Shown here: piece by piece, positions 1 through 57,200 of the stretch
How the letters are laid out: every line of letters begins with the position of its first letter
Position numbering within the stretch: the stretch's first letter is position 1
NCBI GenBank assembly: GCA_000091205.1
Contig: AP006490.2
Reading direction: 5' to 3' (one strand)
From: Cyanidioschyzon merolae
Lineage: Eukaryota
Length of the DNA: 64,000 bases
Program-made: the position numbers and the translations under genes
The notes under the pieces: generated by a model
The model's database searches: none
The model's input: the letters and a program-made list of their open reading frames with translations, nothing else
Told to the model about the DNA's origin: nothing

Positions 1-1380
1 TCGGCCTCCTGCTATCGGCTACGGCTTCCCTCTGTACACTTCGAGTTTGAGAGGCAGCCCCAGAAAGTTGGATCGCGTCAGTTCCGCAGGTATCGTTTTC
101 AGCACCGCACATCGTCTGATATTGATGGCGGCGCTCAAGTCTCGGTTCACGAACTCCATGCATGCTCTGCATCTGGCTGAACGCATCCATGAACGGATTC
201 CTAGAACTCGTGTGCACTGTTCCATTTGCTGCTCTGTCAGCTCTCCGTGCTTTTCTATCGCCGAAGCGCTCGCTGGCTTCTCTCCAGCTCGACCTTATGG
301 GGTGTGCGCCTCAGGTCATTCGTTCTTTTTTTCATGAATGCACTTGTTGATGACTTCAGATGAGCACCTTCACAGAGCGAGAAGGAGTTGCGGAGGGGAG
401 ACGAGATGTCCTCCGTCCCTCGTGTGTCAAAGTATGCTGAAAGCTAAAGCGATTCTGCCAGTGCAGAGAACATTGCGTTTCACAATAGAAAATACTCCTT
501 CGATGCGGTTGAAGCATGGCGAGTATATAGGAATCAAAAGCAGGTCCTCTCTCCGACAGAATCGGCAAAGGCTCCAACGCAAAGGAAATGATGAAATACC
601 ACACTGTCCAATAGAAGAACGTTGCCAAACCTGCAGGGGAAAGTCTTTATAGAATCGACGTAGGGGTGCTGTTGTATGCGCCTTCCGGAGGAGCGAAACT
701 GAGACCGCCAAACGAATCCTCTGCGTCTAAAACAGATGACGGTGTCGGTCTATTCGAGTTCGATCGTACATACAACACGCGCCTTATCCGCGAATACCCA
801 AGTACGCTCTGACCCCATCGCGCGAAGCAAGTCTCATCGACCGAAAAAAACAAATCGACGTCCTTGTGCATCATACTCATCGTGACGTTCCAGGAACGCT
901 GTCGTTCCGATGTCGGTGGAAACTGGCGCTGCTTGAACTATGATGCATCCTTTGCGACTGCATCTCAGTGATTTCAGGACCCCGCGAACAAGCTGGGGAG
1001 AAACAGAGGCGCCAGTGGTTGCTACGATCGTCGCTTTTGCTTTACGTGAGATGATCAACGGGTCGTTTTCCACCATTGACTACAAGCAGTCTTCGAGAAT
1101 ATCGGTTTCTGGCACGGAGCGCATATACTCGTTCGTTTCATTGTTCCATACTTATCTGAGTACTGTGGTATGACTGACCTCCAGGAGGAATGCAGTCCTC
1201 CTTGCTTTGTTCAGTAAAGAATGTATCTTAAAAGCAGTTCGTCTACGGTCCCTAGGATATATTGCATAGTGATTCCCATCTGTTATACACTGCGAAAAGG
1301 CACTCGATTCCACGTAGCACATGTGAAACAGCATTGAGTTGAAAAACGATAACGAGTAGCTATGAACCAAATTGCATACT
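1..1380 (-). mobile_element. Decayed TnpB/Fanzor-like element, copy A. The window start removes about 75 bp of its 3' end. Five consecutive minus-strand ORFs in shifting frames, 1076 down to 19, indicate a frameshifted gene of about 350 aa.
   Basis: Three regions align at about 75-80% nucleotide identity with copy B2 (29170-30670) and B1 (27000-27255): 994-1100, 1100-1370 and 1-230. The C-terminal peptide carries the TnpB hallmark motif. Confidence 0.55.
19..225 (-). pseudogene. TnpB/Fanzor-type C-terminal fragment: a Zn-ribbon followed by a DxNAAxNI RuvC-III-like motif.
   Basis: Translation reads 'CTRVLG...CRACMEFVNRDLSAAINIRR'. This matches the IS605 OrfB/TnpB C-terminus pattern CxxCG...CxxCG..DRDxNAAxNI..RRG. 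The upstream frames are broken. Confidence 0.55.
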
Positions 1381-2677: not shown

Positions 2678-2833
2678 GTGGTGCACAAAAAATCCGTAGC
2701 ATGGTGCGATGCGAGCGAGCGCAGCACCCAGGAGATACAGCAGGCGAATGTGCCGGTATTCTCGCCCGGCATCCGCGTCCGGCAAGAATAAAAAACGAGC
2801 TCAAATCGGCCATGCACGCGAGATACTAGTCCT

Positions 2834-8236: not shown

Positions 8237-11200
8237 GTGGCGAAACGGCGGCTACTGCAGCGGTCCATTCCGAACTGCAATTACTTCAACGCATAGCAGA
8301 CTAGAATGGAACGGGTCCGCTTAGGTGACCCGGGCGACGACATTTTAGACCTATGCGAGAATAAAATGGAAAGATGTCAGCTTCATGAATTCTGGTGTTT
8401 ACGCGAACCCATAGGCCTGCTACCAGGATGATGAACACCGGCCGGTTGGCGCTCTTTCTGTCAATGCTTTCTGGTCTCCTGCATCGTATCTCCGATACGA
8501 AATACGCTGGACTGCCGTCTCTCGCAAGTTACGCTGCCAGCAGTCGACGGGTATTCGTGGCGGCACGGGAGTCCCGATTTCGCTGCATGGGGCGGTTGTC
8601 AACGCTTTTCATCCAGAGTCGGAAGTTGCAATCAGCGTTTCTCTTGCCATTGGCATATTCCTTGGACACATCCCCGGTACGCCATCCGCAGCGTCGGCAC
8701 TCGGCTGGCGTCAGACGTTCGGTGGAGTCCGCCAGAACGCCCCCTTCGATGGCCATCCTGTGGCTCGTCCACGCTTCCCTCAGCGTCCGGTACGTGCACT
8801 GGACGGGTACAGAAGGCTCTGCTCGATACCCAGTTCCGTTGACACAACCGGTGCCGCATCCTCTGATCACGCGCTCCTTCCACGCGATCCCGACGGTGAG
8901 TACCCTGCCTGCTGCGTGAAACAGAGGATCTGTGGAACGCGGTGTTGTCTGTGGTGAAACAAGTACCAGAAGGACTATCCAGACTGGAGACGAAACCGAA
9001 AAGCTTCGCTGCGTCTATGCTCCCGCTGTACAAGCCGGTGACGCACGCTCCACACTGACACCGGTCGCTCCGACGACTACAGCCCGAGCCCAGGACCCGT
9101 TTCCATGCAAACGCAAGTGGCTGAGGCCCCTGGAAGCGCACCCCGCGAGCAGCCCCATGCTGGTGTGGAATGGCGTTCCATCTGTGGCCGCACTGAGCGT
9201 GTGGAGGATTCGTCCTTCCAATGGATTCGGTTCATTGGCGTTACAAGTGCAGTGAACATGCGGCATGAGCTTGTGGAGCATCCGTCATGCGACGGCGTTG
9301 CGTTCGTTTTCTTCGCATGGCTCCAGCGGCACTACTCTGGGGCGCCCGCGAGGTCTCTCGGGATCGAAAGATCGAAAAGCTCAAGAACGGGTGATTCGCG
9401 CACGCTACGGGCAAGCGGGGTAGAGGCATCGAGGCGTGCACGTATGGACTGGGTGATGGCATCGAAGGCTGATTCTGGGGAACGTTCACCGGCTGGGTTT
9501 CGAATGATGTTGATTCTGGTGACGTAACGAAACCGGCGGTGGCGATGCGTCGAATGAGCCACACGGACACGGCATCAGAGAACTCTGAGACTACCTAGGA
9601 ACGGGAGAGCCCTCATTGCTGTACTGGAATGTCGAGGCTGGGCATCTAGAAAGAGTCTCCGAACAAAACGTAAGGCTGGAGCAGAGCGTGCAGTTCAGCG
9701 TTCCACGCGAATCTGACGCAAGTGTTTTTGCGGCCTTCTTCTGTGCGTTCGCTTGCATTATCCCTTGCGCCAAGACGATAGCGACTGTTGCAACGAATCC
9801 AAATATTTTTTCGATCGTCGAGTTGGCAACGAAATGCAGATCATAAGTGCCTACCAAAGCACCCTGCTGTAGAGCATGGAGTCTGCTGGATCGTGGACAG
9901 CGTCGAATCCAAGTCTGGCACTTGAGCAGCGCAGCATACGGACGGTGTTCGTTGGACACTGTCAAGAATTCACGTCCTGGGTATCGCAGCAAGATCAACC
10001 GCGCGTGTTTAGTTCAAACCCAAGAAAAGATGGGTCACTCGGTAAGCGATTCACGTCCTGTCATAATCGGAAGGCGCAGCTGCCGTGCTCGTCCCTTGTA
10101 CCTGTTTGACTGGTGCCGAGGGTTCGCATTCATGAACGCCTAACAAGGCTTCCAAAGGATTGCTGCAGGCCTCGTGGGTATCGGTGCTTGACTGAGAGCA
10201 TACGGGCTCCGTATCGAGTATTGTCTAGATGTTGAAGATTCGTGCACGTTCGGCACCAGAATCGTCCGATGTTTTTGGTTCGCATTGTACAGAAAACAGC
10301 ATACGTGGCATGGATACAGCCTAATTTGATGTTATCTGGTGCTCCAGTCGGCATGTCGTCTCTGTATCATCCGGCACAAGTCGAATTACTGAAGCAGGTT
10401 ACCCGGCAGCATGCTCTGTCACGGTTTCCGGTATCGCAACGTTCCCCGCAGTTTCTCTCGCGTCTGACGCACGCCCGGCACCAGGTTTTCAAGCATTTCA
10501 GTGCATATATGTGTATGTATGTATGTATGTGTGAAGGCCTCTCGGTCAACGCATGGGCCTGCATATGGATCAGAGCGCTTCACCGAATGATCTGCCATGG
10601 GCACGAAACCCAAGGCATTTTTGGTCTGTGGCACCCAGCTCAGACCAGAATATCACTGGGGCACTTATGAACGCGATGTGTGGTTTCATTGCCCGTGCCA
10701 CTGGCTGCTCCAGAGTGCGTTCCGCAAATACGCTTTGTCCATCATCATTCGACAGTCTATTTGAAGACATCTCTCGTATAACTGCTGCCACAGGTGCGGT
10801 GGCTCGCGTCGTCATCATGCGCTCCCGAGGCACAAGTTTCGCCTCAGGACGCCTCGACGCAACCTGAAAAACGCTTACTGAGCATCCTGCAGAGTCGCTG
10901 GATCGCCCGAGTTGTCCGCTATCCAGGGGCAGCAATTTTCATGGAAAATCACCAGAGGCCTCAGCCGAGATACCATTGGCGTCTCTGGATGATTCCGTTA
11001 CAGGCCAACGTGAGTCAGTAAGAGAAACCTCACACTCAGCACGGCAACACGTCGCAGGCGCGCACTAGTCGCGGTAGCCAATGACATGTTCAATGAACAA
11101 TCATCCGAAAACTTCGCATCGCAAATCTCAAAGTTGTTTCAGATTTTCTGAGGTATCTACCAGCGAGCCCTGCTACCTCGTCATGCTCAGAATCGATAAG

Positions 11201-13384: not shown

Positions 13385-14380
13385 TGCGCGGGGCAGGGAG
13401 CATCCACGAAGCTGTATCCTGATGGATCCGTATGAGCGGGTGTTTGTGGAACTTGCTCGCCGTGGGGCGTATGGATGCTTTGGAACGTACCCCAGTGCAG
13501 CATATCTCTGTGTCTGTGTCACGTCCGTGACTAGGAGCATCCACGAAGCTGTATCCTGATGGATCCGTATAAGCGGGTGTTTGTGGAACTTGCTTGCCGT
13601 GGGGCGTATGGATGCTTTGGAACGTACCCCAGTGCGGCATATCTCTGTGTCTTTGTCACATCCGTGACTGGGAGCATCCACGAAGCTGTATCCTGATGGA
13701 TCCGTATGAGCGGGTGTTTGTGGAACTTGCTCGCCGTGGGGCGTATGGATGCTTTGGAACGTACCCCAGTGCGGCATATCTCTGTGTCTGTGTCACGTCC
13801 GTGACTGGGAGCATCCACGAAGCTGTATCCTGATGGATCCGTATAAGCGGGTGTTTGTGGAACTTGCTTGCCGTGGGGCGTATGGATGCTTTGGAACGTA
13901 CCCCAGTGCGGCATATCTCTGTGTCTGTGTCACGTCCGTGACTGGGAGCATCCACGAAGCTGTATCCTGATGGATCCATATGAGCGGGTGTTTGTGGAAC
14001 TTGCTCGCCGTGGGGCGTATGGATGCTTTGGAACGTACCCCAGTGCGGCATATCTCTGTGTCTTTGTCACATCCGTGACTGGGAGCATCCACGAAGCTGT
14101 ATCCTGATGGATCCGTATAAGCGGGTGTTTGTGGAACTTGCTCGCCGTGGGGCGTATGGATGCTTTGGAACGTACCCCAGTGCAGCATATCTCTGTGTCT
14201 TTGTCACATCCGTGACTGGGAGCATCCACGAAGCTGTATCCTGATGGATCCGTATGAGCGGGTGTTTGTGGAACTTGCTCGCCGTGGGGCGTATGGATGC
14301 TTTGGAACGTACCCCAGTGCGGCATATCTCTGTGTCTTTGTCACATCCGTGACTGGGAGCATCCACGAAGCTGCGTCATG
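13385..14380. repeat. Tandem satellite of about 7.2 units with a 137-bp period (one 138-bp unit).
   Basis: The 'atccacgaagctg' unit start recurs at 13401, 13539, 13676, 13813, 13950, 14087, 14224 and 14361. Units are 93-97% identical with mosaic variant sites (gagcgg/aagcgg, gtctgtgtcacgtcc/gtctttgtcacatcc). Confidence 0.95.
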
Positions 14381-14956
14381 TTCGCGTGTGTATCGAGCGT
14401 ATCGCTGAGTGTGAGGTCGTTGTACACAAACGGAATCCGCAAGTAGCCTTCACATCAGCGGGTTCTCATCTCGAAGTCATCAACACTAGAATCCGCTTCC
14501 GGTCATAAACATCCACGACGTGCATGCACTGCATCAAGTTTCTGTATTTAGATCATGTTAAAGGTAGAGTCATCTGAAGAAAGTTACCTTCCGGGGAAAC
14601 CAAGTACATAGCGTATGATTCGGCAGCATGGAAGCGGTGACGCACGCTCGTCTCTTCATGAAGATGATGACGATCATTATCACCGTCGCTGTAGTGCTGG
14701 CGGTGCTCAGAGCATAGACACTGCAACATCAAGAATGTAGGCGGTAGACGCGGACTCCAGGAAAGCGCGTTTCGTTTGCTTCGACTTGGCTTCATCTTGA
14801 TGCACGCGCACCAGTATGAGGCGTTTTCCACGTCTGGATTCGCGAAAGCATCGTGCGTATCAAAACTGACGATATTCAAGCTGTTAAAACGCAATGGCTC
14901 TACAACACGAATTCCACGGATGTGCGAATGCTCTAACTTAGCAGCAATACGACCTG

Positions 14957-25858: not shown

Positions 25859-26939
25859 TACCAGAATTGTACAGATATATTCAGAAAAATTCGAAATTGT
25901 GTCCGTTCATCTTGCGCGCAGCGCAGCCGCTTCTTTTCCACAGCAGCGGCTACGGTCGCGCACCCCACGCTCCGGATGCGCCTACACGGTGTTTGGCGAA
26001 ACGGTGATCCGAGGCCATCGATCCTCGCCCGAATTCCAAGTTCCATCATCCATGCTGCTTCTCGGATATACTGATTACCTTATGGGTTCTATCCTTCGCC
26101 GAGTGCCTGCCTTGCTGCATCCGTGATAGCGCGTATGCCGCTGGTGCGGATGCATGACGGAGACTGTACGGCTTTGCCGTACCGCTGAGGGCGTCGACTC
26201 GAGGTGGGATTCCCCTCACACGGGGTCGGGATTCATGATCATGCTGGGAGCCTGCGGCAGTGCAAAGCGATATCCTAGAAGGCTACCACGATCAGGGCGG
26301 CGCCTAGACGCAGCATACCCGCTGCAAGTCTCAGAATCGGCTGCGTTACGGACAGGCTGCTCAGATCGCACTACAGCACCCGCTACCAAATGGGAACGTG
26401 AAGCACTGGCGTGGCAGGCTCGTCCGGCTCACGGGACCGCACCCCTTGAAGGTAAACTTTCGAAAATAGGGGAAGCGTTTCCCATTTTCTAACGTTTACC
26501 ATGCGGGTCGAACGAACTTGTTATATCGTTACTAGTAAGTTCTTAGTTTGTGGTCTTTGTTCTATATAGTGCGGTCGAGATGCGCACCTGCATTTCTGGT
26601 AGGCGTGAGATACGACGCGCATCTCGCCGTTGAAGGGGAACGCGATCCTGACCGTTAGCGTGCCGCTCTAACTTACAAGTTGGATCGACGTTGAAGTGAT
26701 TGCAAAGCATAGGCTTTCAATTCAATTGTATTTCAACCCTCAAGTGAGTGTATTCAAGTGCTTCTTCGCGGTTTATAGCAGACGCGTTCAAAGCGCGTTC
26801 GTTTTCGAATGTGAAAAAGAAAAGGTATAGACATGCAAGTCGAGGATTCTGGAGGCCCGATGTCGCCGGATTCGACAGCAAAAAACGAGAAAAAACCCGC
26901 ATCTCGCCTGCTGCCGGACGAAGGAGAGCATGTGACGTA

Positions 26940-27306
26940 GTAAAAAGAAGAAGGTAGATAGAAGAGAAAAGATGTTGCGTCGACGGGACGATGACGAGAG
27001 TGTAGTGGCACAGAGGGCACGCAGTTCAGGAACCCTTGCAATCGTGAGTTCCACCAGAGGCAATGAATGCATGGAGCTCGTGACCCAAGACTTTAACGCC
27101 GCCATCCAGACCAGACGAAATGTGGTGCTGAAGACGAGATCCGAGACGCTGAAGCGAGCCAGCTTCCTGGGAGCATCCTTCTGGGGTCGAAGTGTGCATG
27201 CAGAAATTGAAACTGATAGCAGGTCACGGGTCAAAATAGGCAGAGAGGCGTCTGCGGGTGGATGCGCTTTTACCCTCCATGGCCGTGAAACGTTGTTCGT
27301 TTCGCT
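26940..27306 (+). mobile_element. 5'-truncated copy B1 of the TnpB/Fanzor-like element: C-terminal coding remnant plus conserved 3' terminal block.
   Basis: 27000-27255 aligns with the minus strand of 1-230 and with 30468-30600. The 3' block 27245-27306 ('gcgtctgcgggtg...cgtgaaacgttgttcgtttcgctga') is nearly identical to 30600-30664. Confidence 0.5.
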
Positions 27307-27322
27307 GAACGTGTTTGTCTGA
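26972..27322 (+). pseudogene. Degenerate TnpB/Fanzor C-terminal fragment. The ORF runs on into the non-coding 3' block.
   Basis: 'ECMELVTQDFNAAIQTRRNVVLKT' is homologous to 'CRACMEFVNRDLSAAINIRRCAVLKT' of copy A. The Asp of DxNAA is kept, the cysteines are mostly lost, and there are frameshifts upstream. Confidence 0.5.
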
Positions 27323-27854
27323 CAGAAGCCGTTTAGAATGTCCAGGGATCCCCGATTATGTGATGGATATCAGCAGTCGGGAAAGCGTTCATCGTCGCAC
27401 CTATATCCAAGTTCCTTTATCTCGATGTGGGTGATCTGCGCTGCTGCGGCTGTAGCTGGCAATCCAGCCGCAATCTATGGATTCGCGTGATGCATTCTGA
27501 CTGGGCATGTTGGCATTGTCACGAGGTCCAGCGCATAGAGCGTGTAAATGCGAATACAATGATCAAGTACGGACTGCCATTGGTGCAGAATTGTCTGGGG
27601 TAGAGATCGGTCTAGGTATTGTACATGGAGCAGGTAAACAGCGACCCAAGGATCAAGTATGAATTGGAACTCTTTACGGAAATGTCTGGGAGGAACTCCG
27701 TGACTCCTTTGCACTGTGGCTCTCTATCTCTCCAAGATTCAGGCCTTCGGAATGAAGGCATGCGTAAGGTGCTCGATTCTGTTCGGCTTCTCGGTCAGCG
27801 AGGAGAAGGTCTTACGACAAAGGCATCGCGATAGAGCCGCCTCTCGAGATGCGA

Positions 27855-29169: not shown

Positions 29170-30670
29170 GTTCTGCAGCGTGTTCCAGTCTTTCAACTCA
29201 AATTGGTTCATCCCCATTGTGGGGTATAGTAGGCGGTAGGCATCACGACGCAGTATAACCATAGATTGTAGAAGAATTGCCTGTATGATCGATTCTGTAC
29301 CGAACAGTGAAAGGAAGATTGCATTCCTCCTTCAGTGCTGTCATACAACAGGATTCGGATGGTTGACGGGCACTGAAAGGAAGAAGTATTTACGCTCAAG
29401 GCCAAAAACAGATGCTCTCGAAGAATGCGTGCAATCAATTGAAGAAATCGATCCGTGGATCACTTTATGGAAAGCAAAAACGACTATTGTAGCCGCAAAG
29501 GGCGCTTCTGTTTCTGAACAGCTCGTTCCAGTGATCCAGAAAACACTGGGATACAGTCTCAAAAAAATATTTTAGTCGGCGAATGGCCATCTTCCACCGA
29601 TATCGCAACGACACCGCTCCTGGAACGTCGCTCTCGGTATGAATCACCGCCAACTCTGTTTGTTTCCCAGTCGATGAGACTTGCTTCGGATGAAACGAGC
29701 GGAGCTTATACGGGTATACGCGGAGCAGGGCACCCGTTACGTTTCCGATCAAGCTCGAGGAGATCGACGAAATCATCTCTTCTAGCTGTAGTGAATGCTT
29801 TTCGCGGCCTCGGTTTCTCTCGTAGAGAAGGCTCACACAGCGGCACCCTCTGCGTCGATTCATTGAGGACTTTTCCCTGACATCTGGTGACGTCCTTCTA
29901 TTGGGCAACGTGACATTCCACTGTTACTCTTGCGTTCCAGCTTTTGCCAGTTCTATCGGGGAGTAGAGCTGCTTTTCATGCCTCCGAAATCTCCGTAGTT
30001 CAGCCCCTTGTAGGAGTGTTTTCGATCGAGAATAGTAATGAACGCTCCATTGGCTGAATTGCTGAGCGTTCAGCACACGGTGACAAACCGGAGCACATGT
30101 GGTTTATCTTGCAAAAAGTCGTCCTCGCTCCGGAAAGACGCTCACCCAACAGCATAAACAAGTGCGTTCATTTGAACGGTTCAAAAATCTAGGGGAAAGA
30201 TATTGATATGAAATTCGAGGATCCTGGAACGCAGTCACCGGAGGTTGCCGAAAAAACGGAAAAATCCTCTTCTCATCCAGCATCGAGTGAAGAAGAACAA
30301 GTGTCGCAAGGAGGCGAAGCGGAGATATATTCGAGAAATGGTGTTTGACGGATGGGACCTTGACGAGACTTGAATGGCACGGAGGACACGAATTTGAGGA
30401 ATGAGTTCAACCGGCGGCAATAATCGCACTGGGTTCTGGAATCGTATCGTATACCTCGTCCTCAATCTCAGGAAATGTGCGGAGCTGAAAAAGAGACCTG
30501 CGTAGCTGACGCGATCCAACTTCATAGGATAACCTCTCAGGCTCGTAGCGTGCCTGCATAAACTGAAACCGAGAGCAGCTCATCGCTCAAGAAAGGCTCG
30601 GAGGTGTCTGCGGGTGTGTATATATTTATCCTCCGCGGTCGTGAAACGTTGTTCGTTTTACTGATAACAT
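29170..30670 (+). mobile_element. Copy B2 of the TnpB/Fanzor-like element. It has full-length homology to copy A but is frameshifted. The 3' end is about 30664.
   Basis: The reverse complement of 29170-29560 aligns with 994-1370. The + ORF 'KAKTTIVAAKGASVSEQLVPVIQKTL' is a frame-conserved homologue of A's 'KAKATIVATTGASVSPQLVRGVLKSL'. 30468-30664 aligns with the A and B1 3' regions. Confidence 0.5.
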
Positions 30671-30989
30671 ATATATGCAGCGCCCAAGTTTCAAGGCATT
30701 TGCAACGAGGATGCAGGTTTCGATGGATGCGCATACAAGGCCGCGGCATCTTCGGAGATCGTGGATGGTGTACTGCCTGCTGCATGGTACAGAATCGATG
30801 AAGTTGATCCGAGTCTTGTGGATGTATGAATCATTTCCGCAGCCGAGAAGCGGGCATCGATTCCATCAAAGAAAATTCCGCATGCTGCCGATGCTGTACC
30901 CGAGTCAGATTAGAATGGAGCACTGTACTGCTCGTTATGATCAAGCCTTTTGTTTTTTGAACTAATTTGCGGGTACAGTCTTGACGTTC

Positions 30990-32200
30990 GAAGTGAATCA
31001 ACCGGGTTGAAGGATTCATGAGTAGTTTCAGGAGTCTCGATCGTCGTTGCCGGGCAGCCGCTTAGCCGCGTGGCTGCTGGTATTCGTTACGGCACCGGGA
31101 TCAAGGTGCATCGCGACGCCCACGAATTGAGGTTCGTAATATAGTCGACTCGTATACCGATGCATGCGTTCGAGCCGGCACTCTTCGCCTTTTCTAGCGT
31201 TCAGTACGCTCACGTCACGCATAGTTCGCGCCTTCGATCGTGCGGTTTCCCAGCAACAACACATGGGCGCAGCAGTTCGCGCTGCCCCACTGACGAGGAA
31301 GCGTACGCGCCGTCATCGCTTGAACGAATTGCTCAGAGGCACACACGCCGAGCATTCACTGCACTGGGCACCTGCAATACTCGATTCCACTCGAATGATG
31401 CATCGTCCATGCTTGTGCGCATCGACGCAACCGCACGCAACCGCACCCAGCAGCAGCAGCAGCAACAAAAACAACAACATAGTACATCTCACGGGATACG
31501 CTCGGGGAAGCTCCCGTCTCTTTCCTATAGACGGAAAAGGGTCGTGCACCAGGGCTCGCGTCATCGCGGCGATCATATGCCGTGGAGCGTGCGACACCGC
31601 GTTGCATGGACGCAGCTCAGCCGGATCGACTGTGTGTTTGCGTCATGGAGTTTCCTTGCTGCACGTGCTCCACCAGGGACAGCATCGCGATCCACAAATC
31701 CGCCAGTGAATGGAATAGTGTGTACGCTTGCGCGCCCAGCGGACGCGGGACTTGTTGCCCTGATCGCCCGCAGCAGGTCCGTGGTCGTAGCGTGCGATAC
31801 CAGTCGCGGGAGCGTGGGGGCGTATGCAGGCGAGCACGCTGTACCCGTTCGGATCCTGGAACCAAGGGATGAAGCGAGCGCCTACTCGCCGCAGCGCAGC
31901 GCTCGGTGCCTGACATGTGGTGGACGCGCACGGGAAGCGCCTCTCGGTAGTCACGCGTGACTGCTCCTGAGCCATGCCGCCGTTGTATGCAAACCAGATG
32001 GACATGAATAACGACGCGTCGATCGCAACGACCACCTGCGCGTGAAACGCGTTGAGCACAGCCGGACTCCGCGGGATCGGGACTCGAATGGTGCCATCAG
32101 CATCCCTCGAGTGTTGATCATAGAGCCAGAGGGAACAGAGAGACCAGCGTATTGGAAATCGGCGGTAACAGAGACAGAATAAGAGCAGTCGCAGTAATAG
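30990..32200 (+). repeat. Copy 1 of a 1.2-kb direct repeat.
   Basis: About 98% identical to 37406-38610. Similarity decays at both edges. Contains a (CAG)n(CAA)n tract at 31448-31480. Confidence 0.95.
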
Positions 32201-32464
32201 ACTCCAAAACTTTATCATGGTAACAGGGGCAAGAAACCAAAACTTGAGCATGTTTACCCAGTTGTCTCTGCGTGGACGTATTCCATTTCATTCCGACACG
32301 GGTGCAAGGCCGCCAGTCGCAGTGTAACGAGGCACACCAGCCTCGGTGCGATGCTTCCGGAGTAACGCGCTGAAGCGGTGTCGCCTCATCGGATCGCTCT
32401 GCACTTGATGGATGGCGCCACGAGGGCCACAGAAAAGCAGACGGCGCGCGGGCGAGCGCATGCA

Positions 32465-37019: not shown

Positions 37020-37405
37020 CGGCTAGTCGTCCGCGTTTTGCGTCGCGTAGACAGAAGCGCGGGCGTGATGCCTCGCCTGCGTTCGCACACGCGTACGCAC
37101 GCGCACGGGCGCAGGGCGCCATCGGCGACTGCGGCGGCGCACAGCGGCCCGCCGTAGCGTCGATCAGAATGCGACGCATAAACGGTATAAAGCGGTATTG
37201 CGAGGCCAGAGTTGGATATAATGGTCAGGCGCACGTGTATCGCTGCATCGATGCGCAATCGACGATACGAGCAGGGGCACTGTGTGGCACGGGCACTCGT
37301 GTCCGATACATACGCAACGGGGAACTGCTCATTGTGTTCCTGGACGATGATGTATATCCCCGAGCCTTTGTTATATGTAGAGTCTCGACAATCAAAATGA
37401 AGAAA

Positions 37406-38610
37406 CCGGGTTGAAGGATTCATGAGTAGTTTCAGGAGTCTCGATCGTCGTTGCCGGGCAGCCGCTTAGCCGCGTGGCTGCTGGTATTCGTTACGGCACC
37501 GGGATCAAGGTGCATCGCGACGCCCGCGAATTAAGGTTCGTAATATAGTCGACTCGTATACCGATGCATGCGTTCGAGCCGGCACTCTTCGCCTTTTCTA
37601 GCGTTCAGTACGCTCACGTCACGCATAGTTCGCGCCTTCGATCGTGCGGTTTCCCAGCAACAACACATGGGCGCAGCAGTTCGCGCTGCCCCACTGACGA
37701 GGAAGCGTACGCGCCGTCATCGCTTGAACGAATTGCTCAGAGGCACACACACCGAGCATTCACTGCACTGGGCACCTGCAATACTCGATTCCACTCGAAT
37801 GATGCATCGTCCATGCTTGTGCCCATCGACGCAACCGCACGCAACCGCATCCAGCAGCAGCAGCAGCAGCAGTAACAGCAACAACAACAACATAGTACAT
37901 CTCACGGGATACGCTCGGGGAAGCTCCCGTCTCTTTCCTATAGACGGAAAAGGGTCGTGCACCAGGGCTCGCGTCATCGCGGCGATCATATGCCGTGGAG
38001 CGTGCGACACCGCGTTGCATGGACGCAGCTCAGCCGGATCGACTGTGTGTTTGCGTCATGGAGTTTCCTTGCTGCACGTGCTCCACCAGGGACAGCATCG
38101 CGATCCACAAATCCGCCAGTGAATGGAATAGTGTGTACGCTTGCGCGCCCAGCGGACGCGGGACTTGTTGCCCTGATCGCCCGCAGCAGGTCCGTGGTCG
38201 TAGCGTGCGATACCAGTCGCGGGAGCGTGGGGGCGTATGCAGGCGAGCACGCTGTACCCGTTCGGATCCTGGAACCAAGGGATGAAGCGAGCGCCTACTC
38301 GCCGCAGCGCAGCGCTCGGTGCCTGACATGTGGTGGACGCGCACGGGAAGCGCCTCTCGGTAGTCACGCGTGACTGCTCCTGAGCCATGCCGCCGTTGTA
38401 TGCAAACCAGATGGACATGAATAACGACGCGTCGATCGCAACGACCACCTGCGCGTGAAATGCGTTGAGCACAGCCGGGCTCCGCCGGATCGGGACTCGA
38501 ATGGTGCCATCAGCATCCCTCGAGTGTTGATCATAGAGCCAGAGGGAACAGAGAGACCAGCGTATTGGAAATCGGCGGTAACAGAGACAGAATGTGAGCA
38601 GTCGGTGAAC
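37406..38610 (+). repeat. Copy 2 of the 1.2-kb direct repeat.
   Basis: About 98% identical to 30990-32200. The CAG tract is longer (37851-37892) and contains TAA, which breaks the 266-aa + ORF seen in copy 1. Confidence 0.95.
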
Positions 38611-39753
38611 AAACCGGCAAGGGCTGGTGTTCATAACCACGGGAATAGATGCAAACTATAGTAGATATGCGCGCGTTGACAAAGCTTTACATTTTATTCC
38701 TGCATTGTTGGAGAGCGTACACCCGAACTGGCCAATGGACCTGTTCCGTTCTATTCTTTCGTGGGTGTAAACGTCCCGGGGATAGTCCATGCACCGAACC
38801 CGAATTCCTCGGATGTGCGATTGCTATCGGCCGCCAGGATAGCCGCAGTCACTTCTCTCCTGGTGCGTCTACGTTCGACAGACCTCTAGACCACTCCCCT
38901 GGTTGGCGATAGAGCTTCGATCAACCCTGCGAACCTGCAGGTGCCGAGCGTGCCGCACACGCTCGATATCCGGACGGATGCGCCGCTGCCGCCGACCGCA
39001 AAGAGAACGGCACTCCAGTGCCTTGACAGACACCAGCTCAAAATCTAGCGCATGGACACGAAGCGTTCTCCCGGTTGGGCAGCGTTCGCCCTGCACACCA
39101 GTAGGTATACGCGTTCACATAGTCCGTGTACACAAATGCGCTTGGGATCCTTTCGGGCCTGGGACCGCTGATGAGAGTGCTCTAATGGTATCCACGTACA
39201 GTAACGGCTGTTACGAGCCAGGACGCGTGTCACCTCTGTATCCTGGACTGCGAGAGTCGACATCCCATTGAATGTAGACAAGTGGACTGGGTGAGGGACT
39301 CAAAATCTCGGACCCAGCCTCTGCGCCCTGTACACGGGACTTTTATTCCTGCAGCGGTGCATAAAACCGTTGTTCACAACGTACGCATACTAGCATGACC
39401 GAAGTATCCGTTCACAGCTTCAAGGCTTATACTCGTACGACACGAAACTCGGAAGTTGGTCGATCGGCGCCTTCGCCAAGTTGCCCCAAAATCGCTGCAA
39501 CACCGTCCGTGCAGCCTTCACCGCACTCTATGCACAAGAACAGCGGCGCCTTGCGTTCATCACTACAGTTCAGCGGTTCGTTGTATGCAAACCAGCAACC
39601 ATACGACGGGACAAATGTCTCGCTGGTCGCTTGCAAGCGTGCTCCATGCACCGCGTTCAGCCAAACGCTCTGGCGTTGAACGCTCATCCACAGTGGCCCT
39701 GCGTATCGCACGATGATCCCGTGTCGACGTGCCGCTGCGTTGATCACAAAGCT

Positions 39754-50722: not shown

Positions 50723-51936
50723 AAATCGTCGTTGCCCATCCAGGCGCTACCCGTTGTGGTTCTATTTCGGGATCACTGTGGCGCGCTGATCCACCAGCGC
50801 TGGCGGCGCGCGCCATTCTGGGATGACGGCGGCGGAGCGCGGCCTCGCGTTTGACAACGGCGCTGCGCACGCTCCAAGCAGCGACACGTGCCTCATGAAC
50901 AGCGACTGCAGGCTGATGGCGTGCACGCACGAAGCTGCCAAATTTGGCGGCCGGCTCGCTGTCCGGTGCTCGCTCGCATCCGGTGCCGTCGCCACATGGA
51001 TCAGATTCAGTGCGGAATTGCGCTGAAATCCGCCGCAGATTGATTGCAACGCATTCGATATTCCGGGTGTGCGAATAGGTGCGAGGATTCAGGGGAAAGC
51101 ACAGCGCTTCTATCGCAAACGCTGTCGAGCAACGTCAAAGTCGAGAACAGAGTTACGAGTACGAGAAGAAGCGTGGCCGATTTTGAGAGCCAGCCGGTGT
51201 CAAACGTGGCCGGCACGCTTGCTGCGACGCTGGAAGCCGCCCCTCAGAGAATCTTCAGGAACGGTGCGTCTCAGGGCTCGGAGCAGGAACGGTGCCGCTG
51301 ACGGCAGTCACGCCCGTTGTACTGCGCACGATGTGCTATCGGCGATCGGAGCGCGCTCAAAATCCTAACTGTGAGTCTCGAGCAAGTCTTCTTGTCCACG
51401 CAGTGCGCAACGTCTCGTTACTATCGGGTTCGCGAGACGTTGCTGCGAACACGCGGGTGCTCTCGTGTACATTCGAGAAAGCGGCTGGTGCAAGCGAGAC
51501 TGTTGGTGTAATGCAGCGCTTTGCGCAGCGGCGATGTGCTGTAGCCGCAGTCGCCAACGCGAGTCGATGAAATATTTGCACGCCCAGCGCATAGCTGGTG
51601 ATGGAATTCGTATCGCTCCAGGGCGCGCAGACGCTCGCTGCGATCTCGAGCGATCAACATCCACTCGCTACAGAATACCCTTTTCAAAGTGGAGTCGAAA
51701 AGGTACCCGAGCTCCGGCGTACATGCTGTGGTTTGGGTTTCTTCGCTCTACGATCATCATCGCCAGCGTTTTGCGGATTTATTTATGGGGCTGCTTCGGT
51801 TTCGTCGCGTTCATCTCCGGGTTGAGATACGCGGGATCCGTCCTTTACCCCCAAATTTCGTTTTTATATGTAGAGGCAAGTTGATGACGAGGTCCAAGTC
51901 CCGATGTCGCCATGCCCGTCTGTTTCCAGGTAATTT

Positions 51937-52130
51937 CATGTACAGAATGGAGATGTGATTAACGTTTTGGTAGCCATTTTCATCCTCGTGGCACACACGC
52001 TGCGGTGCGCGCTTTGCAGCGGCGACTTGGCTGTGGTCAAGCGTGCTGATATATTGACCAGCAATATGATGCACAGAATGTAGATGCGATCTACGCTTTG
52101 GTAGGGATTTTCATCCCCGTGGTATACACT
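51937..52130. repeat. Two diverged copies, about 80% identical, of a 62-bp motif spaced 131 bp apart.
   Basis: 'atgtacagaatggagatgtgattaacgttttggtagccattttcatcctcgtggcacacac' versus 'atgcacagaatgtagatgcgatctacgctttggtagggattttcatccccgtggtatacac'. Confidence 0.7.
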
Positions 52131-52961
52131 CTCTGTGGGCCGATATGTTGACCAAGCCGCCTCTTCGGAGCGCCGCCCTGTGCTATGTGAAGGCGCGCTT
52201 CATGGCCCGGTACCGGCGCTCGAGGGCTACAGAGGGCTCGCCTCCGTACCCTCCCAGATGCGCGCCACTGGTACCGTACCCGCGGACCATGTGCGTCTTC
52301 TAGGCGACGACCTCAGCGATTACTCTATCCGCTGCATACGCCAGCGCATGCTTTATAGATTTGGTAAAGGTTTGTAGAACGTGATGTTGTCCATGATGAA
52401 ACAAGTAACGACAGTAAAATCCAGGCTGGAAATCGAGTCGAGAAATCTCGATCCGTCTATGTTCCATTCGTGCAGAGCGGTGCTGCACGCTTCACTGGAA
52501 GCGAATGCTGCCATGGCCCAAGTCCAAGTCCAGGATCCTTTTGTATCCAAAGAGAAGAGACGGGCGTCTCTCGGAGCATAGTCGATGACAGGTATCACGC
52601 TGATGTTGAATGTGATGCCATTAATGACCGAAAAGAGTTGCGGGTTTCTCCTGAGAATCCAATCCTGTATTCGACTTGAAAAGTTCAGTGAATTTTCTGC
52701 ATGAGCTTGTGAACGAGTCGTCAAGGAGCTACTTTTCACCTTTCTCGTGTTAAATTAAGCGGCATGCATCGCTCTGTCTATGAGTTGCCTTGAAACAGAA
52801 AGATCGAAAACTTGAAGAATGCGTGGTTTGAGGACGCTGCGCATCAGGAAAAGAGACGATTGGACGCCTGTCCATATGAATTGGATCACGGTATCGGTTT
52901 TTCACGAGCCGTTGTTCGAGGATATCCTAAATCATCTCGATTCGGATATCGTAACGAATTC

Positions 52962-52986
52962 CAGCAGCAGCAGCAGCAGCAGCAGC
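52962..52986. repeat. (CAG)8 microsatellite.
   Basis: Direct read. It lies within the unassigned ORF 52812..53336 and encodes poly-Q in that frame. Confidence 0.9.
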
Positions 52987-53453
52987 CGCATATCAAAGTG
53001 ACCAATCCGAATAGGCGACCGAGAATTCGAAAACGACGACGCATGAGTCCCAAAGCCCTCATTGCTGCACGCGTATTGCCGAAGCTGTCCATCCGAAAGC
53101 AAGGATTCTTAGAACTCGTGCCCTCTGTAACTGAACAGTCTCGTCATGGTCCCGTCGGGCAAACCGTTTTTCTCGACAATCTCCCGTCTTCTTTTTCAAG
53201 TGCACTCCTTCGCTCTATGATCAGCGAGAAGGGCATTTTATCGTTTTCCACACTGGCATCCGACGATGAAGGCCCTCCAGGATCCCCGACTTCCACGTCG
53301 ATGCCGTTCGCTTGGATCTCTTATTTGTTCAAATGAACGCAGTTTGAACGCATCTGCGATGAACCGCAAAAAAGCGTCTGATGGCATTCGCCTAGATGTG
53401 GAACGCATTGGAGATGTTCATTCTCGAAACGCTCTGCTTCCCTGAACCAACTA

Positions 53454-54224: not shown

Positions 54225-57200
54225 GTCCTTCGATGCCGATCTCGAGTGATGGCTTGGTGATTTGACGTTCACGCTTTCGCGATGCGCTCATCGAACGGTG
54301 TGCACGAGACTTTGGCATTGTTTCACCGCCGTGGCGACAGCTGCATCGACACTTTGCAGTTCCAACTATATATGAAGTGTTACTCAATGGCTCGTGATCG
54401 CCGAATGGTTGTGCCTACATTGGTGTCGGCATGCAAGCAACCATGCATTTCCTGTGAATCGAGAGCATGCGAAGCCGTCCTGCGGGTACACCGAGCGGAT
54501 TGCACGATCGCCCGTGCGATTCCGAGGCCTTGGACGGGCCGTCCGCGAACCCGCAGCCTGATTCAGCATCGACATTCCGGAATGGTGTGGCCCGATGATA
54601 CGATCCCGTGATGAGCGAAACCTCGCGGACTGGACGCTTGGTATCAAGAACGCAACACGTGCCACCGCTAGTGCTACTGGTAATCCCGATGTGGCCGCAA
54701 TCACCACGGAGGCTTGCTGCAGAGACGCTCGTGCACCCTACAATTCGCAGTACTTCTGCCGCTACTTGTGCTGCTGCACTTGCATCGGTAACGAATCCCG
54801 GGAGCAATGCTTGCGCCCAAATGATTTCTAGGGATCTGAAATGGGTTCGACCGTACTCCATATCGAAGTTTTGTTCAATAAATGATGCGTTTGCTGGTCT
54901 GTTTCTTATCTTGCTAGAGTGCTTGTCATCGCTCATCGCTCAAAAGCACCTGTTACGAGCCGCTCCCTGGTTGTACCTGGATACCGCTGGATCACATCAG
55001 GATCGCGATGCAACACCAACAAGTCATCTGCGGTCGCCGGAAACGATCACCATCACGATGGATGCCGATGTCCATGGCGGGAGCGCAATGAAGCATGCTC
55101 CTTTAGAAACGGGTTTTTAAAACCCAATCACTGCCGGTATTACTTCTACTCAGTAGTATCGAAGCATGGAACACCGCAATGTTTGACCATTTGCCCAGGA
55201 AAATCGTTGTCTATGGAGGTGTGTATGGCGCTCCAGCCTTGATGCGTTGCAGACCCGTACCACACCAGTGCCTTTTCCTCCTCGCTACTGATTGTTTTCA
55301 TCGAAAGTGTGCGACTTTTCAGCGCAATGTCTACGGTGACTAGAAAGCGATTCCGTCGGATATTCGCGGCGTGCAAAGCCGCCGGACGCTGCGGCAGCAA
55401 GAGACATTTCCCGATCTCGGACGAGTCGCTCAAGTCTCTATTCGGAACTCGCCTGCAAGCGCTGGTGCTGGTGGAGTCATGCCCTAGCAAGCCTCTGACT
55501 TTCGATTGCCTCGCCATCTGGCGTGCAGTCAACTTGCCCTACACCGTCTCGTGTGTCCGGGTGTGTTTCACGCTCTGCGACTCTGCTAGGCTCACGGAGC
55601 GCTCTTGCTTGTGATGCGTTGATCTAGTGCGGGACGCATCGACGGGCGTCGTGCAGCATCGATTGCTGAACGCGTTGTACGCTGGCGTCGAATGAGCGGG
55701 AGTGCACCCTCTGGGAGCTGCGGTGCGTCGATTGCCGCAGACTACCACGAGACGAGGCGACGCATCGGTCATGACCTGGTCCAGTGGCTCGAGCGAGCAG
55801 GCGAAAGCACGTGTCGTGTATCCGTACAACCGAGACGATTGGCAATGCCGTCGCTGCCTCATGTACGCCAGCCAGGGATTGTCAATGGCAGCTATATCGA
55901 CGCTCTTGTGATCTCTGCGTGAAAGACGCATACGAAGCGTTCCAGCGTGTTTGCTACGGTGCTTCGAGCATCAGGATAGGTTCTGAGGCTGTCACTACAT
56001 TTCGTCGTATGCCTGCTTGCAACCATCATACCCGAATGCGGATTACACCGAGCGGTGTGAAAAATCGGGCAGTACGATATTGTCTGTCCCGGGCATTCGT
56101 TGTGTTCCCGCATTCTGGCTTGATCGAAAAGGTTCTAAAGGAATCAGGACAGCTGGTAAGCTTGCCTCCGAACCTTGTACAAATACTTATTTAACGAGGA
56201 TCGTCAAGTCGAGGTAAGCTAAAAGTGTCTTCCTAGAATAAGAAGCTATGCGGTATTGAATCTAGTCCTGCATTTCCCTGTTTCTGGGTTGCTCCCCGTT
56301 GGCGTCTTCACTCAGAAAGGCCATGAAACAGTGTACAGACGGTTTATCCTTACACTCTCTGCTCGCCCTCTTTTCGCGGGAATTTCGCCTCCTTTGTCCG
56401 GTGCTTCTTTCTCGCTCTTCTTCTTCTGCTTTACGTGGCTGGGCAGCTCTGATGTGGCCGCTACGCTCCATGCTTGTTCCCTTACCTTGAGATGCAGACG
56501 CACTGGGTAGTCGATATGTCCGAAATTCGTTTCTTTTAAGTGTGTACTTACGATTCTTCTAGGTACTTTCGTCGCCTTCTCCATCGCGAGCACGTCCACG
56601 GACAGCAGCACGGCATGACGCTCCATCTCGCATTCGGGCAGTGTATCCCCAGACCAGTCCATTGCTGGTGAAGACAGATCGAGATTTGTCAAAGAGCGAC
56701 CGGGCACGCTTCGGTGTCCTTGATCCGAACGACTCTTGTTTGGATCCACAAGCGCAGAAATGGCATTTGAAAACAGAGGAAACGCCGTCGACTAGCTTCA
56801 ACCAGGGAGATTAGCACGACACAAACCGCAGGTCACGGCGAGATGAGGCGCATGCACCTTCGCCGCTTCTCTTTGATGGAACCTGACGTGGTCCAAGCAC
56901 AGGACAGAGGATAGCGGCTAGGAGAAGCTACGAACTGCTTCGACGAAGAGAGCGTTGCTGAACAGTCCTCCCTGTTCGGCAGTTTGTAGGAGACGACGCG
57001 ATAGCATCGTTGCTGGGGGTGATAGCGTCGGGGTGCTCGCTTGACGCGTCTTTACGAGCAGCGGATTTTCCGTCTTTGACCGCTTACATCCAGGTACACA
57101 GTGTCCTCCGTCTGCCTTCTCAACGAGTAAGACGAGTACCCCGTTCCTCTTGGTATATAGGTTCCCGTTGCGGTGCGAAAGCGATGGTGTGTGTTTTTCA

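Follow-up and report, generated by a model that had tools for sequence, protein, structure and literature searches.

The question raised by this locus is what kind of mobile element left a repeat of about 1.5 kb, here called copy B2, in the nuclear DNA of a eukaryote, the red alga Cyanidioschyzon merolae 10D, a host established by proteins that match its CMH genes exactly. A sequence-only reading of the 64,000-nucleotide stretch that we analysed (the window) had seen in it a TnpB-only, IS1341-like element. Our analyses suggest instead that B2 is very probably a fossil, left by a derivative of a mariner-plus-Fanzor1 DNA transposon in which Fanzor was deleted and the transposase kept. Below, X denotes the B2-type family (transposase leader plus X-type tail) and Y a neighbouring repeat.

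We set the limits of the unit by aligning 11 5′ ends and 12 3′ ends (in A4, 19 3′ regions) together with the sequences that flank them. On this basis B2 as a whole occupies 29183-30672 on the + strand, approximately 1490 bp, with ends that are uncertain by ~5 bp. The family 5′ end falls at ~29183, where a terminal non-coding segment (29183-29257, + strand) carries the motif TCTTTCAACTCAnTTTyGTTyCATCC; this segment is kept in 11 copies and the flanks diverge upstream of the motif. The family 3′ end falls at ~30664-30672. At least 10 unrelated loci, with flanks that share nothing with the window, carry copies that begin and end in the same way, and the X leader was matched 15 times in ~1 Mb of non-orthologous loci, with identical 5′ and 3′ ends. 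These results bear out the earlier view, in which the unit is discrete, dispersed and about 1.5 kb long. Its sharp limits at 29170 and 30664 hold, off by only ~13 and ~8 bp. The boundaries are also, as had been supposed, no part of a larger unrelated repeat, Y being a separate family that only occasionally adjoins X ends. A composite X+Y element was ruled out: of ~20 cases, just 3-4 have Y next to an X end, and both orientations occur.

B2 was present in all ten orthologous contigs; an empty site was sought in the same ten and none was found, every one being occupied. B2 is fixed in the sampled population. It shares 80.1% identity with a 9-copy family consensus (pairwise identity among family copies is 61-71%) and contains no intact ORF. 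A scan of the window against Rfam at gathering thresholds gave no match, and a tRNA scan found none.

The 5′ kilobase of B2 contains an IS630/Tc1/mariner-type DDE_3 transposase pseudogene (29258-30066, + strand), which was recognised by tblastn, Pfam and comparison with intact transposases. Its HTH region covers 29258-29572 and its DDE region, interrupted by frameshifts and stops, ~29643-30066, both on the + strand. A consensus of 11 leaders translates to an HTH followed by D..D..E motifs, spread across three frames. This consensus matches Pfam DDE_3 (PF13358) with 88.5 bits (cut-off 28.6; E=5e-25) as well as HTH_Tnp_Tc3_2, and its catalytic motifs read FSVDETSF, LLLDNVAFHH and PPYSPWFNPIEG. 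In tblastn the family-consensus transposase aligned with B2 over aa 4-107 and 102-271 (E=4e-53). Independent intact transposases from L096, L097 and L098 matched the DNA of B2 with E values of 2e-20, 4e-16 and 7e-19, respectively. Among 387 homologues of the X transposase there are intact ~295-aa proteins 41-55% identical over 95-100% of their length, and the mariner transposase of PUl-1 also matched the X consensus transposase (E=4e-17). Cyanidioschyzon sequence yielded no intact copy of the X-type transposase; the nearest proteins that are intact share 55% identity with it. In B2 itself the frames are broken, and the alignment shows the second and third catalytic motifs to be degraded.

These data change the interpretation of the 96-aa ORF at 29285-29575. 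The sequence-only reading had taken it as TnpB-like and had proposed past purifying selection from its comparison with a second copy, A. The DNA strings and both peptides that it quoted are present; the ORF, however, lies in the HTH region of the DDE_3 transposase. Nor do the substitutions between A and B2 point to selection: mismatches are spread evenly over codon positions (30/27/25 of 97 each), the homologous frame of A has two in-frame stops, indels are mostly of 1-2 bp, and tblastn similarity extends to all six frames. These coding tests first suggested that the segment was non-coding DNA, a reading that was overturned once the multi-copy consensus showed the transposase. Judged by this homology, the 96-aa ORF is a true relic of coding sequence.

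The 3′ part of B2 has a different source. CMe-1A (TE-N2_CMe) is a Fanzor1 element of C. merolae with a 3169 bp consensus, listed as “classification unknown”, for which neither TIRs nor TSDs were found (Bao & Jurka 2013, PMC3627910). By sequence comparison, the last 500 bp of B2 are an internally deleted relic of this element. All features of this part lie on the + strand. A short leader upstream of the Fanzor1 start codon (30151-30207) is common to the published CMe-1A consensus (nt ~855-905). It is followed by a remnant of the Fanzor1 N-terminus (30208-30370; MKFEDPGTQSPEV..., compare MEKEVEDPGGPVSPA... in CMe-1), which matches CMe-1A consensus nt 906 to ~1020-1070 and is open for 46 aa (30208-30348) before it is interrupted. 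A remnant of the C-terminus (30359-30619) corresponds to aa 638-729 of CMe-1 (tblastn, 38% identity, E=4e-13) and contains three stops; the intact Fanzor1 of L096 also matches B2 at 30404-30538 (E=3e-5). Between the two remnants, an internal deletion of B type has removed ~1.75 kb, with its junction at ~30360-30400. The deletion fuses the ORF start to the last ~95 codons, so that B2 has neither RuvC-I nor RuvC-II. The junction is common to B2, B1, L026, L031, L033, L045, L047, L068 and L071a/b, and it is one of two junction types, each common to at least four loci. B-type junctions are found with two different 5′ regions, and recombination between subfamilies is therefore required.

Reconstruction of a majority-rule consensus had been put forward as a check for RuvC-I and RuvC-II catalytic motifs. 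The consensus restores the Fanzor N-terminus (~54 aa) and a C-terminal ~100 aa with RuvC-III only; RuvC-I and RuvC-II are deleted from it, as they are from B2, A, B1 and C, and are present in parent-type copies. Their absence is the outcome that the sequence-only reading itself had named as refuting it. The RuvC-III/TNB motif (NRDxNAAxN) is restored in the X consensus (MEFVNRDFNAAINIRRCAVL), intact in A (MEFVNRDLSAAINIRRCAVL) and destroyed in B2, where it has degraded to FWNRIVYLVLNL. The match of the X consensus to Pfam PF07282 had an E value of only 0.075, below the cut-off. Membership of the parent in Fanzor1 was demonstrated with a profile of CMe-1 plus green-algal sequences, which matched SpuFz1 (8GKH, E=3e-19) and Parasitella Fz1 (1e-9); hhalign of CMe-1 against green-algal Fanzor1 gave 98.4%. 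CMe-1 as a single sequence had no significant match in Pfam or PDB, and neither did a Cyanidioschyzon-only (CMe-1-only) profile in PDB. The IS1341 comparison thus stands as far as a relation to the TnpB family is concerned, the 3′ third being derived from Fanzor1, but “TnpB-only” and a prokaryotic IS do not fit a DDE_3 transposase in a eukaryotic host.

Other loci preserve the arrangement from which B2 could have been derived. At L065/L066 a full-length but pseudogenised Fanzor ORF comes directly after the X leader and is succeeded by the X tail; the X-type full-length Fanzor ORF is ~70% identical to CMe-1. Intact pairs of transposase then Fanzor1 occur in L096, L097 and L098/L099, their Fanzor1 being 43% identical to CMe-1 over 687 aa, and the pair in L097 is bracketed by 28-nt TIRs with TA on their outer sides.

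The window holds further relatives. Copy A (1-1336, - strand) has an A-type deletion, in which the leader ATG region is fused to CMe-1A nt ~2735, and runs ~84 bp off the window start; a complete version lies at ~12250-13672 of L004. Self-comparison aligned B2 29239-30171 with the reverse complement of A (334-1276); the identity is 69%, with E values of 1e-101 to 6e-139. On a contig that reaches beyond the start of the window, this alignment can be followed as far as B2 30670. A and B2 share 65% identity over the full length. Homology with A had rightly been recognised, although the figure of about 75% was slightly generous (50-nt windows in segment 29243-29590 range over 63-76%); the reported alignment of 30468-30664 with A and B1 was reproduced. 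Copy B1 (26015-27313, + strand) combines a CMe-1A-type 5′ region without transposase, a B-type deleted Fanzor and an X-type tail. It matches the CMe-1A consensus at 71-969 (26015-26892, 77%) and 2809-3084 (26983-27255) and is much longer than the ~550 bp visible by self-alignment. Copy C (53023-53401, - strand) is a fragment with CMe-1A nt ~816-1019 and part of the B-type junction region, truncated against Y3. The CMe-1A matches shared by B2, A, B1 and C lie only at nt ~840-1020 and ~2740-3090. The Y family has canonical TIRs and four copies in the window; it is a second, TIR-bearing, Fanzor1-derived family akin to X. A third relic, a dead transposon copy, was observed at 55-57 kb of the window.

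With regard to the ends of X, aligned 3′ ends define an X-type tail (30620-30672, + strand) that ends in ...ACTGATAACATA and then TA. A subterminal palindrome is found in the tail of B2, with arms GTGAAACG (30642-30649) and CGTTTTAC (30655-30662). No TIR was detected between the X ends: the 5′ end against the reverse complement of the 3′ end scored 6, with a shuffle mean of 5.6, and the 5′ end resembled neither the 3′ end of the element nor any TIR of its relatives. The X 3′-end consensus, on the other hand, resembles the TIR of the intact relative L097, a score reached by 7 of 3000 shuffles. In a generic direct-repeat test for TSDs, matched flanks equalled mismatched flanks, and the 7-mer TGCAGCG that flanks B2 is within chance. 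In 10 of 11 copies a TA is found no more than 9 nt from the 5′ anchor (P=2e-5), B2 being the one copy without TA just upstream of its 5′ end; at the 3′ anchor, 11 of 18 copies have a TA no more than 12 nt away (P=0.03). The exact termini are uncertain in both cases, and the TA enrichment is only suggestive.

Based on these observations, we propose that the ancestor was an element of ~3.2 kb with two genes on one strand, a DDE_3 transposase (~295 aa) and then a Fanzor1 (~730 aa), arranged as in Pythium PUl-1. Some 585 Fanzor codons, including RuvC-I and RuvC-II, were then lost by internal deletion, which left the transposase gene and both ends. The shortened form spread to several loci, presumably moved by its own or a sibling's transposase, and every copy has since decayed. 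The homologies, the gene arrangement, the deletion junctions and ends held in common and the presence at many loci are observed, whereas cut-and-paste movement by the DDE transposase and present-day inactivity are parts of the model that we infer. Mobility by the encoded DDE enzyme is putative, because there is no X TIR, the 5′ end is unrecognisable, the TSD test was negative and the TA enrichment is only suggestive.

Several other origins were weighed against this one. A prokaryotic-style IS1341-like, TnpB-only element mobilised in trans by TnpA would have the right size, a 3′ third from the TnpB family (Fanzor1) with RuvC-III recoverable in A as well as in the consensus, a palindrome close to the 3′ end, and neither TIR nor TSD. 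Elements of the IS200/IS605 family of this type, however, have a prokaryotic host, an intact tnpB as their sole ORF and subterminal hairpins at both ends, whereas B2 lies on a eukaryotic nuclear chromosome, has no intact ORF and has a palindrome at its 3′ end only, for which no covariation was found; moreover, the consensus lacks RuvC-I and RuvC-II, the ORF flagged earlier belongs to the HTH of a DDE_3 transposase and no HUH/Y1 transposase was seen, so that this origin is extremely improbable. We give equally little credence to immobile DNA, that is, a local segmental duplication of intergenic sequence on chromosome 8. The occurrence of four copies in 64 kb, often beside Y, and their presence in all orthologous contigs would agree with it, but a duplication would hardly place same-end copies at at least 10 loci that share no flank with the window, and to carry transposase and Fanzor sequence is characteristic of transposons. 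Less improbable, though still unlikely, is movement of X by a non-DDE mechanism (for example one that is TIR-less and TSD-less, as proposed for CMe-1A), with the transposase as a passenger or relic. The negative TIR and TSD results and the unrecognisable 5′ end favour it, Bao & Jurka likewise found no TIRs or TSDs, and transposase-less relatives (CMe-1A type and B1 type) far outnumber those with transposase (~110 matches against 17). Against it stand the resemblance of the X 3′ end to the TIR of an intact TIR/TA relative, the suggestive TA enrichment at both ends, the canonical TIRs of Y and L097, and the amplification of transposase-retaining short forms.

A last alternative concerns the Fanzor 3′ segment, which could have been kept for a function, X being guide-RNA (omega/fRNA) satellites that use Fanzor from full-length copies. 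TnpB and Fanzor systems have their guide RNA encoded where the ORF ends at its 3′ side, and this RNA extends to the right end of the element; the last 300-500 bp survive in each of three deletion types that arose independently (A-type, B-type and Y); and the best-conserved 50-nt window between A and B2 is 30468-30517 (82%). Against this, 19 X tails gave no consensus pairs in RNAalifold and 33 main-family tails gave only a weak fold (-3.9 kcal/mol), the hairpin lacks covariation and Rfam gave no match. Any mobile derivative must keep its 3′ end anyway, and the Fanzor ORFs are almost without exception dead, with 2 of 80 reaching 600 aa or more. We therefore consider a functional segment in X very unlikely. 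The broader idea that X and Y are eukaryotic guide-only satellites, with the 3′ scaffold kept, Fanzor supplied in trans and RNA-guided homing or retention, fares marginally better and is still quite improbable; if it were true, the C. merolae repeats would be a natural experiment on the dispensability of Fanzor for transposition.

B2, A, B1, C, the four Y copies and the relic at 55-57 kb are dead transposons, and they explain much of the non-genic DNA in the window. In addition, the most abundant repeat of C. merolae, published as a Fanzor1 of unclassified kind in a very compact genome, is now tied to mariner-type transposons, because a sister subfamily keeps a DDE_3 transposase upstream of Fanzor and intact TIR/TA relatives exist. 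That repeat, CMe-1A, corresponds to one that Nozaki et al. (2007, PMC1955436) had described as interspersed, ~3.2 kb long and present in 253 copies, with a truncated ORF that is WSV486-like. The tie to mariner-type transposons probably also accounts for the “bacterial-like transposase” elements noted in 2007. Y is a second Fanzor1-derived family that was not listed for C. merolae by Bao & Jurka (2013).

Comparison with known systems helps to place X. It shares with CMe-1A the genome, the Fanzor1 lineage, the leader before the ATG, most of the 3′ region, a similar age (~80% to consensus) and undetected TIRs. In contrast, X has a DDE_3 transposase gene in place of the 5′ ~850 bp, differs from CMe-1A over the last ~50 bp, and is without ~1.75 kb of the Fanzor ORF, which it has lost. 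B2 matches the CMe-1A consensus only at nt ~855-1021 and ~2872-3084, with no match to nt 1-850 or the last ~60 nt, and the X transposase has no similarity to the CMe-1A consensus 5′ region. On these alignments X is better regarded as a sister subfamily of CMe-1A, or as derived from it, than as a copy of it, and it may already have a Repbase entry. Bao & Jurka (2013, PMC3627910) described Mariner/Tc1 elements with Fanzor1, namely PUl-1 and PUl-2 (Pythium ultimum) and PGv-1 (Phaeocystis globosa virus). These resemble X in carrying a transposase of the same family and then Fanzor1 on the same strand, and the X lineage in total size (~3.1-3.6 kb); X differs in its undetected TIRs, its internally deleted Fanzor gene and the pseudogene state of both genes. 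IS1341-type (IS200/IS605) elements offer a conceptual parallel to CMe-1A-type copies, being nuclease-only with transposase in trans and having a subterminal 3′ palindrome without TIRs and TSDs. X differs from them in its eukaryotic host, the lack of a HUH partner, its own DDE transposase and a nuclease that is only a fragment. With IS630/Tc1/mariner elements, X shares a transposase of ~295 aa that has two HTH motifs at its N-terminus and the D, D, E/D signature (DETSF, LLLDN..HH, PPYSPwfNPiE), a size of 1.3-1.5 kb once Fanzor is removed and a suggestive enrichment of TA at the ends; it is set apart from them by the lack of demonstrable TIRs and by an extra ~500 bp Fanzor stump on the 3′ side.

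Self-comparison of the window confirmed that B2 is a repeat. Positions 29239-30171 align with the reverse complement of copy A (1..1336, -) at 69% identity (E=1e-101 to 6e-139), positions 30160-30664 align with copy B1 (26015..27313, +), and a fourth fragment, C, also aligns with B2 at 53064-53375. A metagenome contig that is 99.3% identical to the window (L004) reaches 7 kb beyond its start and completes copy A. All nucleotide and peptide strings quoted in the sequence-only reading were found in the window. The ends of B2 were placed from 80 added loci on Cyanidioschyzon-like metagenome contigs, none of the 80 orthologous to the window, by aligning 11 5′ ends and 12 3′ ends with their flanks. 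The 5′ end lies at ~29183, at a conserved TCTTTCAACTCAnTTTyGTTyCATCC motif, and the 3′ end at ~30664-30672, at ...GTGAAACGTTnTTCGTTTCACTGAtcACAt. The unit is thus ~1490 bp long, and the homology limits first proposed, 29170 and 30664, were right to about 10 bp.

The setting is eukaryotic. Long ORFs of the window encode housekeeping proteins, among them inositol-pentakisphosphate 2-kinase, starch branching enzyme, PNPase, M17 aminopeptidase, P5C reductase and succinyl-CoA ligase alpha, and four match annotated C. merolae strain 10D proteins exactly (CMH gene tags). The window is therefore nuclear DNA of a red alga that has hardly any introns, which makes a prokaryotic insertion sequence unlikely. 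Tandem repeats of 137 bp (~7 copies, 94-97% identity) occupy 13389-14399, and the array is also where contig L004 ends.

The 5′ kilobase of B2 and A shows no similarity to the CMe-1A consensus. In family X, to which B2 belongs, this leader is dispersed, with 15 matches in ~1 Mb, almost all full length. A majority-rule consensus of the leader, as the sequence-only reading had suggested, encodes a transposase when read over three forward frames with two frameshifts. It carries two HTH motifs (ARRTAFLLQVSHTTVLRWL and LITLRKAKATIVAATGVSVSQQLVRVVLKTLGYSRKK), a first D motif (FVFSVDETSF...YGYSRRGRP), a second D motif (VLLLDNVAFHH) and an E/D motif (FIPPYSPWFNPIEGVFSIVK). The frameshift-corrected protein matches Pfam DDE_3 (E=5e-25; 88.5 bits, cut-off 28.6) and HTH_Tnp_Tc3_2. 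Its database homologues number 387 and include intact proteins of ~295 aa, with 41-55% identity over 95-100% of its length; the mariner transposase of Pythium PUl-1 is homologous too (E=4e-17). B2 DNA itself matches three independent intact transposases over 29258-29566 and 29643-30022 (E=2e-20, 4e-16 and 7e-19). Judged by these homologies, the 5′ kilobase of B2 is a decayed mariner-type transposase gene. The 96-aa ORF picked out in the sequence-only reading is the HTH region of this gene, and purifying selection on it could not be upheld: mismatches between A and B2 fall evenly across codon positions, in-frame stops interrupt A, most indels measure 1-2 bp, and all six frames score about equally by tblastn.

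The 3′ third has a different origin. An interspersed repeat of C. merolae, with 253 copies of ~3.2 kb and a truncated ORF like WSSV WSV486 (Nozaki 2007, PMC1955436), was later identified as the Fanzor1 (TnpB-like) element CMe-1A, with a 3169-bp consensus and ~150 copies ~80% identical to it, no TIRs, undetermined TSDs and unknown class; TE-N2_CMe is a 635-bp relative (Bao & Jurka 2013, PMC3627910). With the published consensus and CMe-1 protein (734 aa) as references, we found that B2 matches CMe-1A at only two places: nt ~855-1021, which holds a short leader and ~40-55 codons from the ORF start (MKFEDPGTQSPEV... vs MEKEVEDPGGPVSPA...), and nt ~2872-3084, corresponding to CMe-1 aa 638-729. The rest of the consensus had no match in B2. 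A multiple alignment of 16 copies revealed two recurrent internal deletions. The B-type joins consensus ~1070 to ~2826 and is common to B2, B1, L026, L031, L033, L045, L047, L068 and L071a/b; the A-type joins the ATG region to ~2735 and is common to A, L020, L067 and L083. Each junction recurs at several unrelated loci, so the short forms multiplied after deletion. RuvC-I and RuvC-II fall inside the deleted part, and RuvC-III is kept in A (MEFVNRDLSAAINIRRCAVL) and in the consensus and lost from B2. The 3′ third of B2 is a gutted Fanzor1 gene. Kinship with the TnpB family stands; 'TnpB-only' does not, as RuvC-I and RuvC-II are absent from the majority-rule consensus.

The Fanzor1 assignment of the parent ORF emerged at the profile level. 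CMe-1 as a single sequence matched only Pfam PF07282, below threshold, and found nothing in PDB. A profile of CMe-1 copies and green-algal Fanzor1 proteins matched Spizellomyces Fanzor1 (8GKH, E=3e-19) across the TDG, RuvC-I, RuvC-II and RuvC-III, and hhalign gave 98.4% probability between the CMe-1 family and green-algal Fanzor1.

The CMe-1A family is modular at its 5′ region: many full-length copies (among L006-L085) match only nt ~640-870, with other sequence upstream. At least two kinds of 3′ tail occur at these loci, and each kind has a terminal palindrome of its own. Two different 5′ regions are found with B-type junctions, implying that subfamilies have recombined. At L017 4985-5701 (a locus also present in L018 and L082), a pair of B-type Fanzor 3′ modules lies in inverted orientation ~500 bp apart, with no recognisable 5′ region. 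In the window, a CMe-1A 5′ end (27320-27422, +; nt 4-106, 77% identity) directly follows the B1 3′ end (27313), so that one element starts where the other stops, shortly downstream of the CMH142C gene.

Both genes occur together in less reduced copies and relatives. In L065/L066, a full-length but pseudogenised Fanzor1 ORF comes directly after the X leader and precedes an X-type tail. The closest intact transposases lie on metagenome contigs, and downstream of each one the same strand encodes an intact protein of 627-702 aa (gene pairs at L096 436-3634; L097 350-3428; L098 6001-8922; L099 55-2976). These second proteins are homologous to CMe-1 along the whole length (L096, 43% identity over 687 aa; other relatives, E=2e-98 and 4e-77). 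The L097 pair is bracketed by 28-nt TIRs that are flanked by TA (TA|CACTCAG). Genes around the L098 pair are giant-virus-like (IF4E, NAD-dependent ligase, GIY-YIG), and its contig looks like that of a giant virus. The intact pairs may be relatives of the C. merolae fossils that are still active. A third, older relic with the same layout was seen at 55317-57490 (-): remains of a DDE_3 transposase (57490-56673, -; E~1e-14 to 1e-15) are followed by those of a Fanzor1 C-terminus (56065-55317, -; E=6e-32 against intact L096 Fanzor), and little of the Fanzor N-terminus survives.

We propose that a ~3.2-kb ancestor would have carried both transposase and Fanzor1, and that the X derivative would have lost most of Fanzor, kept the transposase and both ends, and then spread. 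Cut-and-paste movement by the DDE enzyme is inferred by analogy with the family, and this step has a real weakness. The two ends of X share no inverted repeat, its 5′ end resembles no TIR, and a test for direct-repeat TSDs was negative. The 3′ end does resemble the L097 TIR (7/3000 shuffles reach the score), and TA is enriched near the 5′ end (10/11, P=2e-5) and the 3′ end (11/18, P=0.03); the 5′ side of B2 lacks TA. B2 is present in all ten orthologous contigs, which leaves no empty site for comparison. [quoted passage not shown]

Guide RNAs of Fanzor/TnpB are encoded at the ORF 3′ end and run to the right end, and the corresponding part is kept in every derivative. Support for a conserved RNA structure in this part was not found: across 19 X tails RNAalifold predicted no pairs, and its fold for 33 main-family tails was weak. 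The X subterminal palindrome pairs in 73% of cells, versus 40-48% with the partner slid, with no covariation beyond column composition, and an Rfam scan gave no match. We assign a low probability to a guide RNA encoded by the retained Fanzor 3′ end.

Family Y is separate from X. Its copies lie at 30900-32307 (+), adjoining B2, 37294-38757 (+), 8298-9724 (-) and 51697-53099 (-). It is very abundant (71 matches in 1.1 Mb, both orientations) and abuts X only occasionally. The Y consensus measures 1382 bp and lies between TIRs of 28 nt that agree at 26/28 positions (0/2000 shuffles score as high); TA is the 3′ flank most often seen. Its coding content is a truncated DDE_3 transposase (38.7 bits, above the Pfam cut-off) and the C-terminal part of a Fanzor1-like protein different from that of X, with a CxxC...CxxC zinc ribbon and RuvC-III (NRDLNAAINI; PF07282, 34 bits, above the Pfam cut-off). 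Y is therefore the second family, after X, derived by deletion from this kind of transposon; Bao & Jurka 2013 (PMC3627910) list one Fanzor family in C. merolae. Copies 30973-32191 and 37377-38604 are 97.5% identical, other Y pairs ~57%, which points to a recent event, either local duplication or gene conversion. Contig L086 aligns with the window up to 32191, where its alignment stops exactly. CAG/CTG runs (poly-Q/poly-L translated) occur in Y copies (31490-31520, 37860-37900) and at the junction of C with a Y copy (52960-53000).

Taken together, the ~1.5-kb TnpB-only IS1341-like element of the sequence-only reading was correctly seen as mobile and TnpB-related, and misjudged in host, gene content and ORF identity. 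B2 is a member of a published repeat lineage, to which the transposase-bearing X subfamily and the link from CMe-1 to mariner-type transposons are a useful yet modest addition. A mariner-plus-Fanzor1 layout is known for PUl-1 and PGv-1 (Bao & Jurka 2013, PMC3627910), and the papers that could be searched hold no report of it in C. merolae; it is the layout of both the intact metagenomic pairs and the proposed parent of X.
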